From a candidate division FCPU426 bacterium (lineage in GTDB: Bacteria; Oederibacteriota; Muellerivitia; Muellerivitales; Muellerivitaceae): a DNA stretch of 64,000 bases. Numbering within the stretch: position 1 is the first letter of the stretch; every line of letters starts with the position of its first letter. The position numbers and the translations under genes were made by a program. Under the pieces are notes generated by a model. The model searched no databases and was not told where the DNA came from. It saw only the letters and a program-made list of their open reading frames with translations. Shown in pieces: positions 6,115 to 63,231 of this stretch. The stretch spans positions 1,344,001 to 1,408,000 of the forward strand of contig CAWCKJ010000004.1 of NCBI GenBank assembly GCA_963796105.1. Reading direction: 5' to 3'.

Positions 6115-6825
6115 TTGCCTACGGTCTTCGCGGGCATCATCAGCACGGTTCTTCTTTTTTATATAGCGACGCTGATCCTGGCCTATACCCACCTGTTACC
6201 CACAGGCCTTCATATGCTCTGGGGGCTCCTGATGACCCTTTTGATCGTTCTTTTGCAATGCCTCATCTTCGGCTTTTTCATCGGGAGCGGGAAAACCATC
6301 AAGCGGGTGGCTTTGGAAAAGGGGTTGCCGGGCGATTGGGCGGATAAAACCAGGGAGTATAAAAACCGGTCCTATCCAGCGTTGATGTGGGCGATTTTGG
6401 CCACTGTCCTGGCGGCGGGGGCGGGGGGCGGGGTTTCCACGGGCTTGATCCCGATGACAGCGCATCAAATCCTGGTTTGGGCCGCCTTTGTCATGAACGC
6501 GGTCTCATTTTGGATCTCATACAGGGTCATCGTGGAAAACGTCAGGGCGATCCATCAAATCAACGGAATCATTCAAGAACGGGATAAGAAAGGGGAAACT
6601 CAAGTCGAGAGGGTCAAGATCTTGAAAGAGGAGAAATCCCCGTCCTCCGCCCAAAGCCGCCGTCCCCAGAAATTTTTCTTTCTATCGGCCGCGGTTTGGA
6701 TTCCTTATTTCTACATGAGGTATTCCTTGGGAAGCCGTACTTTTCCCTTTTGGCCTTTTTTAGCATTAAGCCTCCTTTTTCTTGTCCTGGGGGCGATTGA
6801 AGTCCCCAAAACGCTGAAAGAGTGA
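6115..6825 (+). CDS. Hypothetical multi-TM membrane protein
   Basis: About six hydrophobic segments; GGAGG before TTG. Confidence 0.75.
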   Translation: MPTVFAGIISTVLLFYIATLILAYTHLLPTGLHMLWGLLMTLLIVLLQCLIFGFFIGSGKTIKRVALEKGLPGDWADKTREYKNRSYPALMWAILATVLAAGAGGGVSTGLIPMTAHQILVWAAFVMNAVSFWISYRVIVENVRAIHQINGIIQERDKKGETQVERVKILKEEKSPSSAQSRRPQKFFFLSAAVWIPYFYMRYSLGSRTFPFWPFLALSLLFLVLGAIEVPKTLKE

Positions 6826-7047: not shown

Positions 7048-7791
7048 GTGAAATTTTTTTCTTTCTTTCTTTTTCTCTTAACAGCTTCCTTAACAATAGG
7101 AACCAATGTTTGGGCTGATGGCCCCGGCGATTTTCTGCATACCAGAACCTACATCGGCGTGTTCGGAACCTCCATCAGCATTGACAAGAGCGGCGAGTTT
7201 TCGGGAACCAACTATTCCCGGGTGGATAATCCGGGTTATGAAATCACGGCCATTCCCTCCCTGGCCCAGAATTTCGGTTTTGCCGTTTTGTTAGGCCATA
7301 GGGAGGAAGCTTACGCGCTGGAATTGAGTTATTGGCAGTCCAACCACTTGGCGACTTTTGGGCCGACTACCTTAGGAGCGATATCGGGACAATCCGCGAC
7401 TTTCACGGGTACCTACCAGGCCGCAGCCGTGCTTCGGTCCGTGAACGTTGATTTCAAGAGGTATTTTCTTACCGATTTGAACTTTCAACCCTTTGTCAGC
7501 CTGGGGGTGGGTTTCCCCTGGCTCGATATTCCTGATGCCGATGGCGATGGCGCCGGCCATATTTATCCGGTGACCCTGGCCGGGTTGGGTTTTGATTTAG
7601 GCCTGGGCGCCGAATACTACCTGTCTCCCGCCCTTTCCATTGTTGGAAGCGCCTCCCATCGCTGGGCCAGTTTCGACCAGCTCAAGGGCTACCAGGGCCT
7701 TTACAACCAGATGGCACTTTATGGAAGTTCCACCGGGGACAGCGAGGGCGGTTTTATTTTCGCGATCGGAACCACGCTGGGTTTCGAGTGA
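7048..7791 (+). CDS. Outer-membrane beta-barrel protein A (small barrel)
   Basis: Signal peptide after GTG at 7048; amphipathic strands (QPFVSLGVGFPW, GFDLGLGAEYYL); paralog of 10408-11175. Confidence 0.8.
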   Translation: MKFFSFFLFLLTASLTIGTNVWADGPGDFLHTRTYIGVFGTSISIDKSGEFSGTNYSRVDNPGYEITAIPSLAQNFGFAVLLGHREEAYALELSYWQSNHLATFGPTTLGAISGQSATFTGTYQAAAVLRSVNVDFKRYFLTDLNFQPFVSLGVGFPWLDIPDADGDGAGHIYPVTLAGLGFDLGLGAEYYLSPALSIVGSASHRWASFDQLKGYQGLYNQMALYGSSTGDSEGGFIFAIGTTLGFE

Positions 7792-7836
7792 CGCGGGTTC
7801 GCTTAAAGAGGAATTAAAATTCGGGAAGGCCGGTTC

Positions 7837-8886
7837 ATGAAAAAATATTGGTTTTTGGGCTTGTTTTTCGCCCTGACGGCATTCACCCTTTTGATCGGGC
7901 TGGCTTGCTCGGTTAATCCCACAGGCCCCAGCCTGCGTCCCGCCGTTCAAACTATCGTGGCCATCAACCCGACCTTTACCTTTACCAACACATTTACCCC
8001 GACCTGGACCCCGACTCCTTCTTTTACGCCCACTCCCTACGTCAGCACGACGCCTTGGGTTTCCTACAAGAATCCCTCCGGATTGGCGGTGGATTCCTCC
8101 GGAAATATTTATGTCGCGGACACGGGCAACAACGCGGTGGAGAAGTTCTCGCCCAACGGCGTCCTCTATTCCGACTGGGGCAACGGGGGCAAGGGAAGAG
8201 GGAAGATCTATATCAACCAGCCCCAGGCGGTCGCGGTGCAAGGACCGACAATTTCCGGCTCGCCGGTCACCCTTTATGTGCTCAACGCCAATGGCGTAAG
8301 CAAATTTGATGATTTGGGAAATCCCTTGGTCCAATTCACGCCTTCCAGCGTGACCTTTACCAGCCCTCAAGGCATAGCGGTGGATGGAAGCGGGAACATC
8401 TTTGTCAGTGACAATGAAACAACTGCCTCGAAAATCTTTAAACTTTCCAATACGGGTTCAGCGGTAACGGCTTTTGGCACATCCGGGATCTTCACTTTTG
8501 GAGCGCCGGTAACAGCGGTTTTCGGCCTGGCGGTGGATGATTCACAGAATATTTGGGCCGCTGTCGCTAATAGCGTCTCCTATGGGAACATTTTGGAGTT
8601 GGACGCTAACGCAGCCACAGTAATATCCACTATTACTGGGTTTAATAATCCTCATGGCATCACATTTAACGGTCCGGTAACCGCTGAGGATTTATTTGTC
8701 GCGGATTCCGGCAACCACCAGGTAGAGGAATTCTTGCCCGGTTCTTTTACGGCTCCATCGGTTATTTTCAACGACGGGGGGAAATTATCGAATCCAGTCG
8801 GGGTCGGTGTGGATTCTTACGGCAATGTTTACGTGGCGGATTCAACCTACCAGACGAACGGGGCTGTTTTCCGGTTTACACCTTAA
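7837..8886 (+). CDS. NHL-repeat lipoprotein 1 with Thr/Pro stalk
   Basis: Lipobox GLAC; TPT repeats; NPSGLAVDSSGNIYVADTGNN, SPQGIAVDGSGNIFVSD. Confidence 0.9.
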   Translation: MKKYWFLGLFFALTAFTLLIGLACSVNPTGPSLRPAVQTIVAINPTFTFTNTFTPTWTPTPSFTPTPYVSTTPWVSYKNPSGLAVDSSGNIYVADTGNNAVEKFSPNGVLYSDWGNGGKGRGKIYINQPQAVAVQGPTISGSPVTLYVLNANGVSKFDDLGNPLVQFTPSSVTFTSPQGIAVDGSGNIFVSDNETTASKIFKLSNTGSAVTAFGTSGIFTFGAPVTAVFGLAVDDSQNIWAAVANSVSYGNILELDANAATVISTITGFNNPHGITFNGPVTAEDLFVADSGNHQVEEFLPGSFTAPSVIFNDGGKLSNPVGVGVDSYGNVYVADSTYQTNGAVFRFTP

Positions 8887-8915
8887 ATCGCAGGGAGAGG
8901 CGGAGGATCAGGAAT

Positions 8916-10196
8916 ATGATGAAAAGGATTTTATTGGGCGTCTTGCTTCTCACGACGGCTTTGCCCTTGACCATTTCGTGCAAGAACTCATCCAACCCCG
9001 CGGCTCCCGCACCGACTCCCACCAGTTGGGCCGGTTTTACGAACACGATGACTTACACGACAACCTACACACCCACGATTACCCCGACACTTACGATCAC
9101 CCCATCCTTCACCATTACACCCTCTCCAACGGCAACGACCTCTCCCACAATCACTCCCACAAATCTCAGCGGGTACACCTCCACACCCACTCCCTCCTTC
9201 ACCCCCACTTCGACTTTTACTTATACCTCAACCTACACTTATACCTATACCGCGACCTATACCACCCCGACCTTTACGCCAACCATTACCTGGACCTTCG
9301 TGGCGAGTCCCACGTGGGTGTTCAGTAATTCTTGGCCGGTCACCCATCCCAACGGGCTGGCCCTATTAGGCAATTCCTCATCAGGAACCCTGTTCGTGGC
9401 GGCGGGAGAAAATTCCGTGGGAGCGCAAGTTTTAAGTTTTAAAATCAGCAATGGCGCTTTGTCCGGCGGAGTCTTGGGGACATGGACTCAATGGGGTTCA
9501 ACTCCCTTGGTTTCTCCTGAGGGGGTCGCCGTCAACCAGACCACCAATCAGGTGTATGTCGTGGATTCGGGCGACGGCGGCAATGGAACTGTTTATGTGT
9601 TTAATTCTGACGGGACTACAGTCACATCCTGGTCGTCCTGGACCGGAGCCCCGGTTTCCGCTTTTAACGATCCTACCGGGATCGCGGTGGATTCCACGGG
9701 AACTACCGTTTATGTGGCGGATACGGGACACAACACCTTAGAGGTGTTTGACCAAAATGGAAATTACATTTCTCAATGGAGCACAGGGACTGGAACTGAT
9801 TTAAGCCCCGTAGCCGTGGCTTGCGGTGCTGGAACAACAATCGCGGCCGTGGACGACGGAAACGCTTCTGGATCTGCCACTATTAATGTTTACAGTTCCG
9901 CTTCTTTAGCGGCATCAATAACCGCCGCTCCTAACGCGGATATTTTCGGTTTAGCTTTTGATCAAACCGGGAATCTGTTCGCCGCGGATACCAGCCTGGA
10001 TCCGAATGGAAGTGTTGAATATTACAGTGCCGGGGTGGAGCAATTTGTTTTAACCGGAGGAACTGGCACTAATGCCTTTGTCAGCCCGGATGGAGTGGTT
10101 TATGACACCACCGGCACACTTACCTGCCTATACGTTTCTGATTACGGAAACGGTTCAAACGGACTGGGGTCCATCGAGATTTTAAGCCATCATTAA
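8916..10196 (+). CDS. NHL-repeat lipoprotein 2 with long Thr/Pro/Tyr stalk
   Basis: Lipobox TISC; ~100-aa Thr-rich tract; DPTGIAVDSTGTTVYVADTGHN. Confidence 0.9.
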   Translation: MMKRILLGVLLLTTALPLTISCKNSSNPAAPAPTPTSWAGFTNTMTYTTTYTPTITPTLTITPSFTITPSPTATTSPTITPTNLSGYTSTPTPSFTPTSTFTYTSTYTYTYTATYTTPTFTPTITWTFVASPTWVFSNSWPVTHPNGLALLGNSSSGTLFVAAGENSVGAQVLSFKISNGALSGGVLGTWTQWGSTPLVSPEGVAVNQTTNQVYVVDSGDGGNGTVYVFNSDGTTVTSWSSWTGAPVSAFNDPTGIAVDSTGTTVYVADTGHNTLEVFDQNGNYISQWSTGTGTDLSPVAVACGAGTTIAAVDDGNASGSATINVYSSASLAASITAAPNADIFGLAFDQTGNLFAADTSLDPNGSVEYYSAGVEQFVLTGGTGTNAFVSPDGVVYDTTGTLTCLYVSDYGNGSNGLGSIEILSHH

Positions 10197-10407
10197 AACC
10201 AAGAAGCTTCTTGTTTCCGGTTCCTAATCGACTTTTTGCGGATTGAAGTGGGGTTTTTTAGGGTTTTTTCTTTCTTAATTGTCACTCCCCGCCTGTAAAT
10301 CAAAGTTTTCCTTATATTTTCAAGGTTTCTTGAGTTAAAATAAATTCCTAACAAAGGGAATACGGGAATTTTCGCCTGTTTTCTCAAACGCAATAAAATC
10401 CAGGAGG

Positions 10408-11175
10408 ATGGGACAACGAATGAAAATGAATAAAATCGGCCGGTTCATGGCATTTGTTCTGTTTTTCGGGGCGGTCACCACGGCAGTTCTGGCTGATGAT
10501 TTATTAGGCGAGTTCTTTGAGGGATCTTCAACCGACTTTATAAAATCCAGGGTTTATATCGGGGCATTCGGGATTTCTTCCACCATCGACCAATGGGGGG
10601 ATTTTAACGGAACCATAATCGCATCGCATAATTCAGGCACTGAAACCGAGTTGGATTTAATCCCGGCCATAGACCGGAAATTCGGCTGGGGGGCTCTTAT
10701 CGGCTACAGGAGGGGCCCTTGGGCTGTTGAAATGAGTTATTGGCGGAGCGACCATACCGCTACATTTAACAACGGTGTCACCCTTACAACCCCCGCCAGC
10801 TTGCAATCGCTCAATTTTGATTTTAAACGGTATTTTTTCACCCAAGCGCCCACCCAGCCATTTTTCCAATTTGGCTTTAGTTTGCCTTGGTTATGGGTCC
10901 GTCAGGCATCATCGCTTGTTCCCAGTAATCTTGTGGATGATGAGACTATTTCGGGCATCGGCTTTAACTTGGGGGCTGGTTTGGAGATATACCTGGATAA
11001 CAATTTCTCCATCATGGGCGGGGTCATTCAACGTTGGACGGGGTTCAACCAGATCAATGGCGCGGCTAAAATACCTGAGAATACTTTGTACGACGACGGA
11101 AATCCATCCGACATTGGGTCCTTGGAAGGGGACGGCCTTAATTTTTACGCGGGCATGACCTTCGGGGTGGAATAA
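10408..11175 (+). CDS. Outer-membrane beta-barrel protein B
   Basis: AGGAGG RBS; shares YIG.FG, SYW.S.H.ATF, N.DFKRYF.T, QPF, PWL and RW..F.Q with barrel A. Confidence 0.82.
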   Translation: MGQRMKMNKIGRFMAFVLFFGAVTTAVLADDLLGEFFEGSSTDFIKSRVYIGAFGISSTIDQWGDFNGTIIASHNSGTETELDLIPAIDRKFGWGALIGYRRGPWAVEMSYWRSDHTATFNNGVTLTTPASLQSLNFDFKRYFFTQAPTQPFFQFGFSLPWLWVRQASSLVPSNLVDDETISGIGFNLGAGLEIYLDNNFSIMGGVIQRWTGFNQINGAAKIPENTLYDDGNPSDIGSLEGDGLNFYAGMTFGVE

Positions 11176-11302
11176 TTCCGTACGGGAAAACCATGGGGTA
11201 TTAAGGGATCGAAGAAGTCGTTTTCGTGGTTTAGTGGTAATATTCATTAAGACTTGCAGATGGATTTTTAACCTTTTTGCAAAACCTTCTCGAGGCGGAA
11301 AA

Positions 11303-12538
11303 ATGAAAAGATTTCTGATGCTGGGCATCATCCTTTCAGGATTGATCATCCCCCTAGCCTGTTCGGACAACAATAACAACCCTACGAAGCCCCAGGTTCC
11401 GTCCATTTCGGTTACGCCGACTGGAACAATCACCCCCATTGTGCCGACTTTTACAAAAACTCCGACAGTGACAGGAACGGTTAATACGCCAACTGTTACA
11501 CCTACCCTTACCAACACTCCATTAGTCACCCAGACCCCCGCGCCTCCTTTTCTAGGTAATTACGTCACTTCAGCTGCTCCAAATGCCATGTATTACGATG
11601 GCAGTATTCTTTATGTCGCCGAGGGTGAAGTGAGGGCAGGAGGGGATGTCACAATGTTTGAGTGTTATCAGGTCAGCGGGGGTGGAAATCTTACGGGGGC
11701 TTGCGGTGGTTGGGTGGATCCTCAAGTGGATGGAAATCAGTTGGCTTATGGTATTCCAACCCCCGGCCTTACTCCTCCTTGGCAACCAAGTCTTATTACT
11801 GCGACTATGCCTCAGGGATTAGCGGTTACGAAAGGATGGGTCGCGACCTTGGATTCCTCACCCTCCGGTGCCGCGACTTTATATGAAGGGCAAGGCGGCT
11901 TTCAAGGTTTATTCACATGTATTACCACTAATTATGGTGGCGCTCCCCTCAATGCGCCAAGAGCCATGGTTGGGGATTCATTAGGAAACATTTATATCGC
12001 GGACACCGGAAATGCTTATGTCGATACATTTGGAGTAGGAGTTGAATGTCTCATTGACAATTTGGAGGCGGATTGGCTTCACCGGTGGAATGGGGCTTCT
12101 TCCAGTATGCCCTTCAAACAGCCAGTGGCTTTAGCTGTTGACGCCCAAAATGATATCTGGGTAGGCGACTCAGGGTATTCCCCATCGCTCATTGAGGTTT
12201 ATACATCAGGAGGCGCGACTTTTGGTGTTCAAGGGATAAATCCCGCCGGATTTTTTAAAACCGTTCCAAATTGTATCATTAACGGGTTGGCTGTGGATCA
12301 AAGCGCTTCTTGCAGCGGCGTTCCTGGTCCTTGTGTCTATGTTTCGGATACCGCAAACGGAGGGCAGGTGGAGGTTTACACCTCCCTGGGTAATCTTGTG
12401 AGAGTTTGGGGCGATCCCCACGGGCCTCATGAGTTTTTGCCGTTTAACCCGGCTTCCATCGCTCTTATCGGAAATCCGCCAACCATTTTCATTGTGGGGG
12501 ATACAAATAACGACATCCTTAATGTTTTCGGGCCATAA
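11303..12538 (+). CDS. NHL-repeat lipoprotein 3 with Thr/Pro stalk
   Basis: ATG at 11303; lipobox PLAC; GNIYIADTGN, FKQPVALAVDAQNDIWVGDSG. Confidence 0.88.
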   Translation: MKRFLMLGIILSGLIIPLACSDNNNNPTKPQVPSISVTPTGTITPIVPTFTKTPTVTGTVNTPTVTPTLTNTPLVTQTPAPPFLGNYVTSAAPNAMYYDGSILYVAEGEVRAGGDVTMFECYQVSGGGNLTGACGGWVDPQVDGNQLAYGIPTPGLTPPWQPSLITATMPQGLAVTKGWVATLDSSPSGAATLYEGQGGFQGLFTCITTNYGGAPLNAPRAMVGDSLGNIYIADTGNAYVDTFGVGVECLIDNLEADWLHRWNGASSSMPFKQPVALAVDAQNDIWVGDSGYSPSLIEVYTSGGATFGVQGINPAGFFKTVPNCIINGLAVDQSASCSGVPGPCVYVSDTANGGQVEVYTSLGNLVRVWGDPHGPHEFLPFNPASIALIGNPPTIFIVGDTNNDILNVFGP

Positions 12539-12990
12539 CGGGATTGAATTTTAAACTTTCTTCTAACTGTTATGTGAAATTGAACACTCCACACGATATT
12601 AACAGCGTGTTTATATGTTTTTTTGAACTTTGTTGATTTCCCTTTTTTAAAATTACCTATCGATATTTATGAACTGAAATAAACTTGATGATCTAAAAGT
12701 TTATATGTTCGAGGTTCCCTCCAACCAAGGATTTTCCCAGAATATAAAGCTAAAACCGTTGATCAAATCGCCAAGTTGTCATTTTACAAGTGGACATTGA
12801 AGGCATTTGTAGGGTAAAAATGGTGGACTTGATTCGAGGTTTAGGGTACGGTTGTGGCGAGACCGGCTCGACTTCTGCGGGAAAATGTTAAATTTATTCC
12901 GCTGAGACGGTTAATAACCCGGTCGTCCTAGGAATCGCGGACCCGGAAAAGTTCGAGGACCCACTCTTTTCTCACGAGGAGCCATTTCTC

Positions 12991-13719
12991 ATGAAGATTT
13001 CCCTGAAAATATTAATGGGTTTTATCCTGATTCTGCCAAGCCTGGGGGGAACCGCCCGGGCCGGCCAGCAGGTTTATCTTTCCCAATCTCCAAATGAACG
13101 CTACAGAGTGGTGGTGGAGCAGGTCATTGACCGGCGGGTCGGGGATAAAATATTCTTCCGCTATCCCATCAGCCTGGTGAATTCCAAAAACGGCCGCCAT
13201 TTCGAGATTCAAGAGGCTACGACGCCCTTGGTTCGGGAAACCCAACGCGAAACCTTCCAAGTTCATTGGGACTCCATCCATTTCGACTGGTCCAAGGACA
13301 GCCTGAAGATGTTCGTAAGGGTGGAAGTTATCGAGGGAACCTGGCGGACCTTTTTCGTGGATGTGAACAAGGGAACAACAACGGATATCACCGCCGATCT
13401 CGAGCAATTCATTGTTCAAAGGGTGGAATTCCACGATTGGGCATGCCAGGAACCGACCACTGTCCAAGTGGTCCAATGGACGAAACCTTACCTGGCCTTC
13501 TTGAAAGTCATCGATATTTGCGGGAAAGAGAAGGACAAGGAGAACCGAAAGCTTTTTTACATGAATGACTCCCTGCTTTTTGACACTCATTTGGGCAAAG
13601 TCGTGACCCATTGCGCTGATTGCAAGGATGAAAGAGCCTTAAAAGCATTTGACAAGTATTTCCAGTCCACCCAGGCGACTCCGACCCCAACGCCGGAAGA
13701 AACCCCAACCACCCAATAA
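12991..13719 (+). CDS. Secreted hypothetical protein with C-terminal PT tail
   Basis: GAGGAG RBS; signal peptide; ends TQATPTPTPEETPTTQ. Confidence 0.8.
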   Translation: MKISLKILMGFILILPSLGGTARAGQQVYLSQSPNERYRVVVEQVIDRRVGDKIFFRYPISLVNSKNGRHFEIQEATTPLVRETQRETFQVHWDSIHFDWSKDSLKMFVRVEVIEGTWRTFFVDVNKGTTTDITADLEQFIVQRVEFHDWACQEPTTVQVVQWTKPYLAFLKVIDICGKEKDKENRKLFYMNDSLLFDTHLGKVVTHCADCKDERALKAFDKYFQSTQATPTPTPEETPTTQ

Positions 13720-19816: not shown

Positions 19817-19853
19817 AAACTGGGTTGTGTTGTTTCGCGGGAAAGAGGATTTA

Positions 19854-20720
19854 ATGCGGCGTATTAAAAGACAATTTTTTTTATCTTTGCTTTTACTCGC
19901 AGCCATAAGGGTATGTCAGGCCCAGGATTTATCCCCCCGCTATTTGGCCGCCGCGAATCAGGCTTACCTTGCGAAAAATTACGACCAGGCGATCCTGTAT
20001 TATCAGGCGGTGGTGAAGTTGAACCCCCAGTCCACTGCCGCGGAACTAGGTCTGGGAAACAGTTTTTTCGTGGAACGCCGTTACGGGGAAGCTTTGACAG
20101 CTTATCAGGCTGTTCTCAAGCTCGATCCGAACAACGCCCAAGCCTCGCGCTTAATTGAGGTTTTACGGAAGAACAATTCGTCACCCGCGCCGACGGCAAC
20201 TTCCACGCTGCCTATTGGGCCGGTGGTGGATGTTTCCCATCCCGTGACTGTTCAACCGGAAGGCCACCGATACATGGGTATCGGAGGAGGCATGGCTTCG
20301 CCTTCCCAGGGAGTAAATGATAAATTTCAATCCGGGTATGGACTTGAGTTTTATGTGGGTTATGCCGACGCGGGCAAACTATCTTTTCTCATTTCCGTCG
20401 CGGGCTACGAATTTCCCTTGAAAGCCAGCACTCTGAGCCAAGACGAGGTGGAAATCGTGCCGGGAGTGAGGCTTACCTTCGGGAATAAAATCAGGCCCTA
20501 TCTCTGCGCGGGTTTGGGAATGGATTTTGACATCAGCAATTACACGGGGGGTTCCTCAACCAATACCAACTTCATGCTGCAGGGCGGGGCTGGATTGGAA
20601 TTTGAGTTCTCGAAAGGAACAAGTTTTTTTGTGGAGGGAATATATTCTGAGGTGTTCGGATCGTCCGCGTTTGCCTACATCCCTTTTAATGCCGGTTTCC
20701 ATTTCGACTTGGGAACTTAG
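19854..20720 (+). CDS. TPR + outer-membrane beta-barrel fusion protein
   Basis: N-terminal TPRs (LGLGNSFF..ALTAYQAVLKLDP), PT linker, C-terminal RPYLCAGLG / GGAGLEFEF / FVEGIY / IPFNAGFHF strands. Confidence 0.85.
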   Translation: MRRIKRQFFLSLLLLAAIRVCQAQDLSPRYLAAANQAYLAKNYDQAILYYQAVVKLNPQSTAAELGLGNSFFVERRYGEALTAYQAVLKLDPNNAQASRLIEVLRKNNSSPAPTATSTLPIGPVVDVSHPVTVQPEGHRYMGIGGGMASPSQGVNDKFQSGYGLEFYVGYADAGKLSFLISVAGYEFPLKASTLSQDEVEIVPGVRLTFGNKIRPYLCAGLGMDFDISNYTGGSSTNTNFMLQGGAGLEFEFSKGTSFFVEGIYSEVFGSSAFAYIPFNAGFHFDLGT

Positions 20721-62245: not shown

Positions 62246-63231
62246 TATGCTTATGCACAAAGTGACCGTGCTGTAATGGGTTTTGCTAAGGCACATGCGG
62301 TCAAAGCACGGTGAAATAAGGAATCGGGATCATGACGACGGTTGAACCGATAGGCATATTCACTTAGATACCGGCCTAAATACTTAGCATCAACGCCATG
62401 ATGAGTTCCAATGATCCAGGCCTTGGCGTTGGAAATGAACCGGTGTACCCAGGGCAACCAACTTTCCAACTCTTTCGGGTCATTGGCCATCACCCGGTAG
62501 TCTGCCTCCACTCCTTTGAGTTCACGCAAGGCTGGCGAAGCATCTGTGTTGAGGAAAGAGCCTTTTTCCATAGTCTGATTCACGAATTCCTGGCTCTCCC
62601 ACTTGGTTTCCATAGCTACCTTCACCTTGGCAAAACCCGCTTTTTCCTTCTTGCAACCATTCTCATCCACCCATTCCTTGCTTTCCACCGCCACCAAGAC
62701 TTCCACTTGGTTTTCCTTGGCCTTTTTCCCAAAAACCGCCCCATCCAACTCAATGACGCCCTTTAGAGTATAGCTTTCGTCCTTTTGCCTAAGACCTTCC
62801 CGGATCTTATGCAATAGAAGCCATGCCGAATGATCCGAAAGATTTAAATGCCGCTTCAGTTCCAGGGCCGAAATACCCCGTTTGCCCTGCATCATCAAAC
62901 TGATGGCCCTGACCCAGGTTAAAAGAGGCAGCTTGGAGCTTTCAAAAATCGTCCCGGCGCGAAGCCGAAGACGTTTCCGGCAATAGTCACATTCCCTCAC
63001 TTCAGGCTTGGCCTGGTGTTGCCAGAAGCTTTCGCCCTCACATTGGGGACAAACAAAGTCTTTCCCGCCGAAACGGCATCTCCACACCCATTGGCGGGCT
63101 TCTTCTTCCGTGTGGATTTTCCTCAGAATTTTAATGCTTTTCATCCGCTGGTAGCTCATGTACCACCTCCCGTAGCGGACAGTATACCTATGTATTCCTT
63201 TATTTCAAGGGTCACTTAATACAGAAGCATG
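62246..63231 (-). mobile_element. Complete IS1595-family insertion sequence (986 bp)
   Basis: TIRs ATGCTTATGCACAAAGTGACC vs rc ATGCTTCTGTATTAAGTGACC (17/21); 8-bp TSD TGATTTTA at 62238-62245 and 63232-63239. Confidence 0.92.
62251..63159 (-). CDS. IS1595-family transposase (ISSod11-like, His at the third catalytic position)
   Basis: Zn ribbon CPQC/CDYC, GTIFE.SKLPL, IELD, NTD, LPWVHRFISNAK, YLSEYAYRFNRR. Confidence 0.95.
   Translation of the reverse strand: MSYQRMKSIKILRKIHTEEEARQWVWRCRFGGKDFVCPQCEGESFWQHQAKPEVRECDYCRKRLRLRAGTIFESSKLPLLTWVRAISLMMQGKRGISALELKRHLNLSDHSAWLLLHKIREGLRQKDESYTLKGVIELDGAVFGKKAKENQVEVLVAVESKEWVDENGCKKEKAGFAKVKVAMETKWESQEFVNQTMEKGSFLNTDASPALRELKGVEADYRVMANDPKELESWLPWVHRFISNAKAWIIGTHHGVDAKYLGRYLSEYAYRFNRRHDPDSLFHRALTACALAKPITARSLCA

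Follow-up and report, generated by a model that had tools for sequence, protein, structure and literature searches.

Slam proteins have an N-terminal TPR domain followed by a predicted 14-stranded DUF560 barrel, and in about 52% of Slam clusters the barrel gene lies beside lipoprotein genes (PMC5449769, in the part used here). In the BAM machinery of Bacteroidota, BamG and BamH form a pair in which a conserved lipoprotein N-terminus inserts at the barrel wall and the barrel is an attachment platform; bamG2 and bamH2 are in one putative operon (PMC12578637, also in part). Porin III, from the Dot/Icm system of Legionella, is a small barrel acting as structural partner of another complex (PMC12501162, in part), the prolines of the OmpW lateral gate flank strands 3 and 4 (PMC2993939, in part), and OmpA's 8-stranded barrel has been described as not large enough for a polypeptide (10.1101/2020.07.15.203869, in part). 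Here we analyse a gene cluster of a candidate division FCPU426 bacterium (order Muellerivitales, assembly GCA_963796105.1) that lies in 64,000 nucleotides of contig CAWCKJ010000004.1, positions 1,344,001 to 1,408,000. This whole stretch is called the window and supplies the coordinates below. The cluster encodes two outer-membrane beta-barrels, A and B, and three lipoproteins, lp1, lp2 and lp3. We find that barrel A is kept together with a short N-terminal lipopeptide of lp1, the tag, and that the propeller head behind the tag is optional. The barrel A-tag pair is a lineage-restricted variant of a barrel-lipoprotein partnership, with a naturally mapped candidate tag. The parts of the cluster are as follows:

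Barrel A, 7048-7791, + strand: GTG start (frame open from 6958), signal peptide and outer-membrane beta-barrel, ending in G-F-E.
lp1, 7837-8886, + strand: lipoprotein with Cys24, conserved N-terminal tag, Thr/Pro stalk and NHL beta-propeller head.
Lipid cysteine to tag end of lp1, 7906-7971, + strand: residues 24-45 with core 33-45, kept with barrel A upon head loss.
lp2, 8916-10196, + strand: lipoprotein with Cys22, long Thr/Pro stalk and NHL head, without an lp1-type tag.
Barrel B, 10408-11175, + strand: paralogue of barrel A, PF13505, modelled as 8-stranded (predicted local distance difference test, pLDDT, 91), ending in G-V-E.
lp3, 11303-12538, + strand: lipoprotein with Cys20, Thr/Pro stalk and divergent NHL head, without the tag.

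The cluster resembles Slam/T11SS (type XI secretion system) loci in that a barrel gene stands beside a lipoprotein gene; of the 58 barrels found in 31 genomes, 57 have one in their cluster. Barrels A and B have, however, neither the TPR domain nor the 14-stranded DUF560 barrel, and whereas Slam cargo carries a C-terminal soluble 8-stranded barrel, the heads here are NHL propellers, other non-NHL domains, or absent. An earlier note on this DNA did not recognise the barrel as Slam, and this is borne out by eight strands, no TPR and a match to PF13505 and not to PF04575. With BamG-BamH the cluster shares a barrel gene paired with a lipoprotein that has a conserved N-terminus, although here conservation is what is observed and binding is predicted; BamG is a 14-stranded FadL homologue bound to BamA, whereas our barrels have eight strands and the head is optional. 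NspA, OmpW, the transmembrane domain of OmpA and OprG have the same 8-stranded PF13505-clan fold with long extracellular strands, and by its modelled fold the barrel is an ordinary PF13505-clan protein. Barrels A and B differ from these in an added polar C-terminal residue, in predicted lipid-facing residues of strands 1 and 7 that are small or polar and in a dedicated lipopeptide gene, which our literature search did not find described for those barrels. They also lack the C-terminal periplasmic peptidoglycan-binding domain of OmpA. The top structural match of barrel B is Legionella porin III (PDB 9nh2; Z 16.8, root-mean-square deviation (rmsd) 3.7, 183 residues aligned), tied with NspA (Z 16.2, rmsd 2.6, 151 aligned; VIA-align). 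Porin III is 13% identical and forms a C16 ring around DotG, and the shared fold shows no shared function. The head of lp1 is an NHL propeller by its fold model and is similar to six-bladed propellers such as the Mycobacterium PknD sensor domain, TRIM-NHL and Pizza6 (Foldseek E 8e-16 to 1e-11), but it is lipid-anchored on a Thr/Pro stalk and dispensable in several lineages. A literature search, with most subscription papers outside its scope, for an 8-stranded barrel that anchors a lipoprotein N-terminus, for NHL lipoproteins and for FCPU426 envelope proteins returned nothing that describes this pair.

Barrel genes are linked to lipoprotein genes

The order barrel A, lp1, lp2, barrel B, lp3 is present as the earlier note had described it, with all five open reading frames (ORFs) on the + strand. 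Its description of the lipoproteins is equally accurate: the lipobox cysteines are residues 24, 22 and 20 of lp1, lp2 and lp3, a Thr/Pro stalk follows each, and a Pfam scan found PF01436 NHL repeats in four, two and one stretches, respectively. The proposed linkage of barrel and lipoprotein genes is real, and tighter than the window by itself could show. We searched 99 genomes of the phylum with a barrel profile. Within the order, 58 genes in 31 of 32 genomes matched strongly; of the 67 genomes outside it, only 3 had matches, and these were weak (E 1e-9 to 1e-14). Among these 99 genomes the barrel clade is confined to one order. A search of 1.84 billion representatives gave 577 matches at E<=0.001, including 32 at E<=1e-30 (best 150 listed). 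A lipoprotein lies directly downstream of 52 of the 58 barrels, and the remaining six are two A genes of genus g4, three B genes with lp2 directly upstream and one gene without a lipoprotein (G015, locus L114).

Each of the 27 barrel-A genes shares its cluster with a lipoprotein that bears the tag. Directly behind 25 of them is lp1, with its Cys codon 62-117 nucleotides past the barrel stop; in the other two (genomes G004 and G020, both g4) barrel B comes next, followed by two lipoproteins. Metagenomes provided 41 further barrel-A loci, several of which duplicate the genomes: lp1 is directly behind the barrel in 32, seven have or resemble the g4 order (A, B, lipoproteins) and two end too soon. 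A barrel A without lipoproteins in five genomes was considered and ruled out, length cut-offs having filtered the short head-less genes. In this genome, a lipobox ORF is directly downstream of none of the nine other PF13505 genes and directly upstream of one. Because the arrangement is conserved across the family while none of those nine genes has a downstream lipobox ORF, it is beyond chance.

The upstream case, at G000:C4:828041-829809 (- strand), is a Thr/Pro lipoprotein with tandem repeats of about 40 residues in front of another PF13505 barrel, and is a possible second barrel-lipoprotein pair.

The conserved part of the lipoprotein is its N-terminal tag

Orthologues of lp1 share the motif F-Q-x-P-(L/V)-Q-T-(I/V)-V-A-x-N-P about ten residues past the cysteine. 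Column conservation in lp1 is 0.72 in the tag as compared to 0.55 in the head. The equivalent stretch is conserved to 0.56 in lp3, and to 0.71 with unrelated sequence in lp2. In this genome 47 stalk lipoproteins were called heuristically, and of these the tag profile matches lp1 alone (37 bits; next 0.8). When the first-look candidates of the 32 genomes (30-97 per genome) were scored with a profile of signal plus tag, 33 genes in 31 genomes matched strongly (E<=3.1e-9), and each of them stands directly behind a barrel. Three further matches were weak, namely one lp3 and two unlinked genes. Twenty-four of the strong matches were in the profile and nine were not, and all nine genomes outside the profile were matched. 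The sole genome with neither barrel nor tag match is G017, which is 97% complete. In a clade hold-out the core-motif profile placed 7 of 12 lipopeptides above every decoy, namely those of G003, G015 and G014, both first peptides of g4 and both proteins of metagenome locus L153. When lp1 is modelled alone, residues 25-64 have pLDDT<50 while the head is confident. The hydrophobic moment of the tag (0.23 at 100 degrees, 0.225 at 180) does not distinguish helix from strand.

Ten barrel-adjacent lipoproteins in eight genomes have no head and consist of signal, cysteine, short segment, Thr/Pro stalk and stop. Specifically, the short gene behind barrel A in G003, G076 and G015 encodes a signal peptide, a lipobox, the N-terminal segment of lp1 and a Thr/Pro stalk, two head-less genes follow barrels A and B in G004 and G020, and one stands behind each barrel in G008, G014 and G025, which belong to another family. 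Metagenome loci L136 and L144 are two more examples. Head-less genes are spread over several separate barrel clades, and no NHL remnant was found behind them in the ten stretches checked. Proportions of nonsynonymous and synonymous differences (pN/pS) over 26 codons in five pairs were 0.15/0.63, 0.16/0.84, 0.10/0.58, 0.25/0.62 and 0.46/0.90, rough estimates from short stretches, as compared to 0.19/0.71 and 0.21/0.74 for barrel A. Judged by these substitution patterns, purifying selection on head-less genes is clear in four of the five pairs, and they are not simple wrecks. At L153 the tag leads two heads without a Pfam match and without NHL repeats.

The tag is kept in head-less and head-swapped forms, and therefore the conserved unit is the barrel plus an N-terminal lipopeptide, with the head optional. 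The earlier note had suggested an anchor with variable heads; this fits, as the heads are NHL, non-NHL or absent. It had also treated the NHL lipoprotein as the cargo, which does not agree with the N-terminal lipopeptide being the conserved part and the NHL head being absent or swapped in some lineages. Natural deletions map a candidate interaction to about 20 residues of the tag.

The barrel is small, with an altered predicted lipid face

Barrels A and B are paralogs, as claimed earlier: they share 37% identity over 227 residues (E 1e-40) and are the sole mutual tblastn matches in the genome at E<=0.01. A search of the 4.98 Mb genome for close barrel members gave two matches at E<1e-80, the next being at 0.0011. 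Barrel B matches PF13505 above the cut-off (E 1.2e-6), and 51 of the 104 family members hit PF13505; no Pfam family was matched by barrel A, whose ESM atlas neighbours are OMP_b-brl clusters. Pfam and NCBIfam scans found no TPR family in either barrel. None of 13 close-clade representatives was named by NCBIfam, which on 42 distant relatives gave a few sub-cut-off barrel matches (PorG, AcfA, OMP_myx_plus) or fused-domain matches, and the barrel profile had no match among PDB chains at E<=1.

The AlphaFold model of barrel B, made with 104 sequences, has a pLDDT of 91, a predicted template modelling score of 0.81 and ten strand segments. We read the two segments of loop 1 as an extracellular hairpin and the remainder as an eight-stranded barrel. 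Over residues 42-255 the model matches 8-stranded barrels, with OmpW (Z 15.7) and OmpA (15.4) following porin III and NspA; the top matches are tied within about 1.5 Z, and Foldseek agrees. By homology to this model, barrel A is predicted to be an eight-stranded outer-membrane protein. The mature proteins have about 225 residues, are entirely barrel and stop at the last strand. Conserved R101, E108, K140, E193 and R209 have inward strand parity, which suggests a closed, polar and charged lumen, as judged from parity and not from coordinates; the upper lumen is predicted to be hydrophobic. Proline is invariant at position 86, at the start of strand 2, and at position 160 in strand 5. PF03922 (OmpW) matches one of the 104 members, weakly (E 0.0055).

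The earlier note had found it unusual that both barrels end in G-x-E and not in Phe. This is literally true but less odd than it seems. The penultimate residue is F in 37 of 43 barrel-A sequences, and the final residue is F in 82 of 111 distant relatives, so that the ending reads as a normal last strand with its hydrophobic residue one position earlier, plus one polar residue.

Predicted lipid-facing cells of strand 1 hold large hydrophobics at a frequency of 0.40 in barrel A (n=43) and 0.36 in barrel B (n=77), as compared to 0.74 in 111 distant relatives. In strand 7 the values are 0.55 and 0.58 versus 0.76, and the remaining six strands show no comparable drop. Such a face fits a partner lying along it, and a barrel-barrel interface equally.

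Duplication history

We built a FastTree tree from 206 columns of 77 barrels, leaving out genes of less than 190 residues. It contains an A clade (26 members, support 0.93), a B clade (26 members, support 0.84; 25 genome barrels, with the G022 gene nested within, and one database protein) and a weakly resolved group of five other barrels (G008, G012, G014, G015, G025). The frameshifted copy in G073 is the 27th barrel A by synteny. Judged from the tree, the A/B duplication is older than most genera of the family.

According to the earlier note, the barrel and its cargo were duplicated as a whole unit. For the genes of this window this is not supported. In profile comparisons of the heads, lp1-lp3 is the most distant of the three pairs (E 9e-23, as compared to 2e-41 for lp1-lp2 and 3e-36 for lp2-lp3), the lp1 and lp3 heads do not group as sisters, and the cluster mates are outscored by several NHL proteins encoded elsewhere in the genome. 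Moreover, lp3 is tagless and mobile: of the 32 genomes 27 have an orthologue, among them every one of the 26 with a barrel-B orthologue, and five of the 27 have it away from barrel B (G004, G020, G013, G023, G071). Orthologues of lp2 were not found in G003, G076, G004, G020 and G015, some of which keep both barrels. What stands is a plausible ancestral duplication of barrel plus tag, because g4 and L153 have two barrels and then two lipoproteins. This layout suggests, on an unrooted tree, that barrel and tag were originally duplicated together and that in this lineage barrel B may subsequently have lost a tagged partner.

Some frames are split in two: lp1 in G072 (L094 8975-10077), barrel A in G073 (L095 9604-10409), a barrel in G008 (L058 3738-4527) and a second lp3 copy in G019 (L112 5989-7325). 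These may be assembly errors or real breaks. Two distant barrel relatives stand in tandem in G057 and G058, members of another family (L099 6125-8920; L100 97-2384). Of four stretches scanned downstream of the distant relatives in G057, G058 and G061, three had no lipobox-like match and one was doubtful.

Discussion

We propose, with even confidence for and against, that barrel A binds the lipidated tag one to one in the outer membrane, as a complex that holds the stalk and an optional head, where binding is predicted from conservation. An outer membrane is likely because Omp85 and LolA matches are encoded in the genome. Lol would deliver the lipoprotein and Bam the barrel. The tag would then pack against the barrel face around strands 1 and 7, where the predicted lipid-facing residues are small or polar, so that the barrel grips the tag and no folded domain is passed through. 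The pair would anchor the Thr/Pro stalk, and the stalk would keep the optional head off the membrane, with the head probably located on the cell surface. Barrel B lacks a tag-bearing partner in this window, and we regard lp2 and lp3 as looser members. A bolder version, which we think unlikely, is that the tag of about 20 residues is portable: it would complete the lipid-facing wall of the barrel, reach the outer face during Bam folding and display anything fused to it, be it an NHL propeller, another domain or only a Thr/Pro stalk, without a translocon pore.

Several observations weigh against a barrel-tag complex. The genomes compared are kin and not independent, and the in-clade barrel of G015 (L114) has no lipoprotein. 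Most stalk lipoproteins of this genome are encoded away from the barrel (44 of 47, and among those with NHL-like heads 10 of 13), so that a neighbouring barrel is no requirement of the class. The hold-out could not separate the peptides of G008, G012 and G025 and both second peptides of g4 from decoys, these five being recognised by position and lipobox only, and without composition correction the core profile separated 2 of 10. The altered face, assigned by strand parity and not from coordinates, could be a barrel-barrel interface. Barrel B has the same face and yet no tagged partner in 24 of 26 genomes, and the correlation between face and peptide gene is imperfect, as one of the positions is still occupied by a large residue in G014 and G025.

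The pairing could also mean that the lipopeptide serves the barrel, as an assembly, stability or plug subunit (an LptE-like role) of an OmpW-like small-molecule channel, the heads being passengers and possibly periplasmic. Head-less forms stay under selection, and the minimal function thus needs no head; OmpW, OprG and AlkL are among the fold matches, the barrel has invariant prolines in its strands and a predicted hydrophobic upper lumen, and in many relatives exbB-exbD-tonB and a TonB-dependent receptor lie behind the cluster. We nevertheless consider a channel subunit rather unlikely. The OmpW gate prolines flank strands 3 and 4 (PMC2993939, in part) and the barrel has one where strand 2 starts and one within strand 5, a single member is matched by the OmpW family, the TonB block moves independently and is about 245 kb distant here, and the stalk is retained even in head-less forms. 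Co-transcription for a shared process or for translational coupling, with no contact between the products and with head-less genes as slowly decaying remnants, would agree with all genomes belonging to one order, with further neighbours conserved without a known link, with the free movement of lp3 and with the frameshifted lp1 and barrel A frames of G072 and G073. It would not explain why head-less genes are intact with synonymous sites near saturation and pN well below pS in four of five pairs, why the tag is more conserved than the head, why no strong-score tag occurs away from barrels, or why g4 and L153 pair two barrels with two peptides; such contact-free linkage is quite improbable in our view.

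The earlier note had raised a translocon or anchor, and in the strongest form of this idea the barrel would act like Slam, carrying across the outer membrane either its neighbours or every stalk lipoprotein. Lipoprotein genes adjoin it, as for Slam (PMC5449769, in part), and dozens of stalk lipoproteins require some export route; PF04575 (Slam) is unmatched in the genome, which is uninformative as the search control was also unmatched. The model of barrel B is eight-stranded, conserved charged residues would point into the lumen, a polypeptide is described as not fitting the 8-stranded barrel of OmpA (10.1101/2020.07.15.203869, in part), and a soluble 8-stranded barrel of the kind usual in Slam substrates is absent from the cargo. 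With eight modelled strands, a predicted polar lumen and no TPR, the barrel is not a Slam and probably has no pore for a 270-residue propeller, and we regard a translocon as very improbable.

The proposed complex of barrel A and tag bears on how lipoproteins reach and stay on the surface of diderms without a recognised Slam. The barrel-lipoprotein complexes considered here for comparison use larger barrels, with 14 strands in BamG and Slam (PMC12578637 and PMC5449769, both in part). As the candidate interaction involves some 20 residues of the tag and a barrel of roughly 225, it can be tested directly by a construct of two genes. A portable tag would also make a compact display tool. Restriction to one order among the 99 genomes limits the general reach.

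Neighbouring genes and other observations

A membrane protein of 236 residues without a family match is encoded at 6115-6825 (+), directly 5' of barrel A; the gene has this place in most relatives and is absent from the g4 loci. Downstream of lp3, a decayed C-terminal remnant of tonB with an in-frame stop is found at 12775-12957 (+; 43% identity to the TonB of a relative, E 9e-8). The intact exbB-exbD-tonB-receptor block of this genome is at G000:C4:1600795-1604947, about 245 kb off, and in relatives it sits between lp3 and a gene for a secreted protein of 242 residues. The latter, here at 12991-13719 (+), matches neither Pfam nor NCBIfam and has a short, conserved tail of Thr/Pro; 31 of the order's 32 genomes have it, often with tonB on one side and the TonB-dependent receptor on the other. 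We rejected it as part of the module, since it tracks tonB and the receptor even where the barrel is elsewhere or unmatched.

An Rfam scan of the window gave no match, and promoter and terminator scans were at the level of shuffled sequence (7 vs 6.2 and 8 vs 11.0, respectively). The ORF at 62251-63159 (-) resembles one for an IS1595-type transposase, judging by its sequence features. Genome-wide there are 185 ORFs rich in Thr/Pro repeats, many of them secreted proteins of 1000-3000 residues with a shared C-terminal tail reminiscent of type IX sorting domains; PF14349 (SprA) was unmatched in the genome, as was the search control, and is hence uninformative. At 19827-20720 (+) a TPR domain is fused to an OMP_b-brl-like barrel, with a weak TPR_Slam match below the cut-off. 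This is a Slam-like layout with a small barrel, and similar proteins are encoded elsewhere in the genome.

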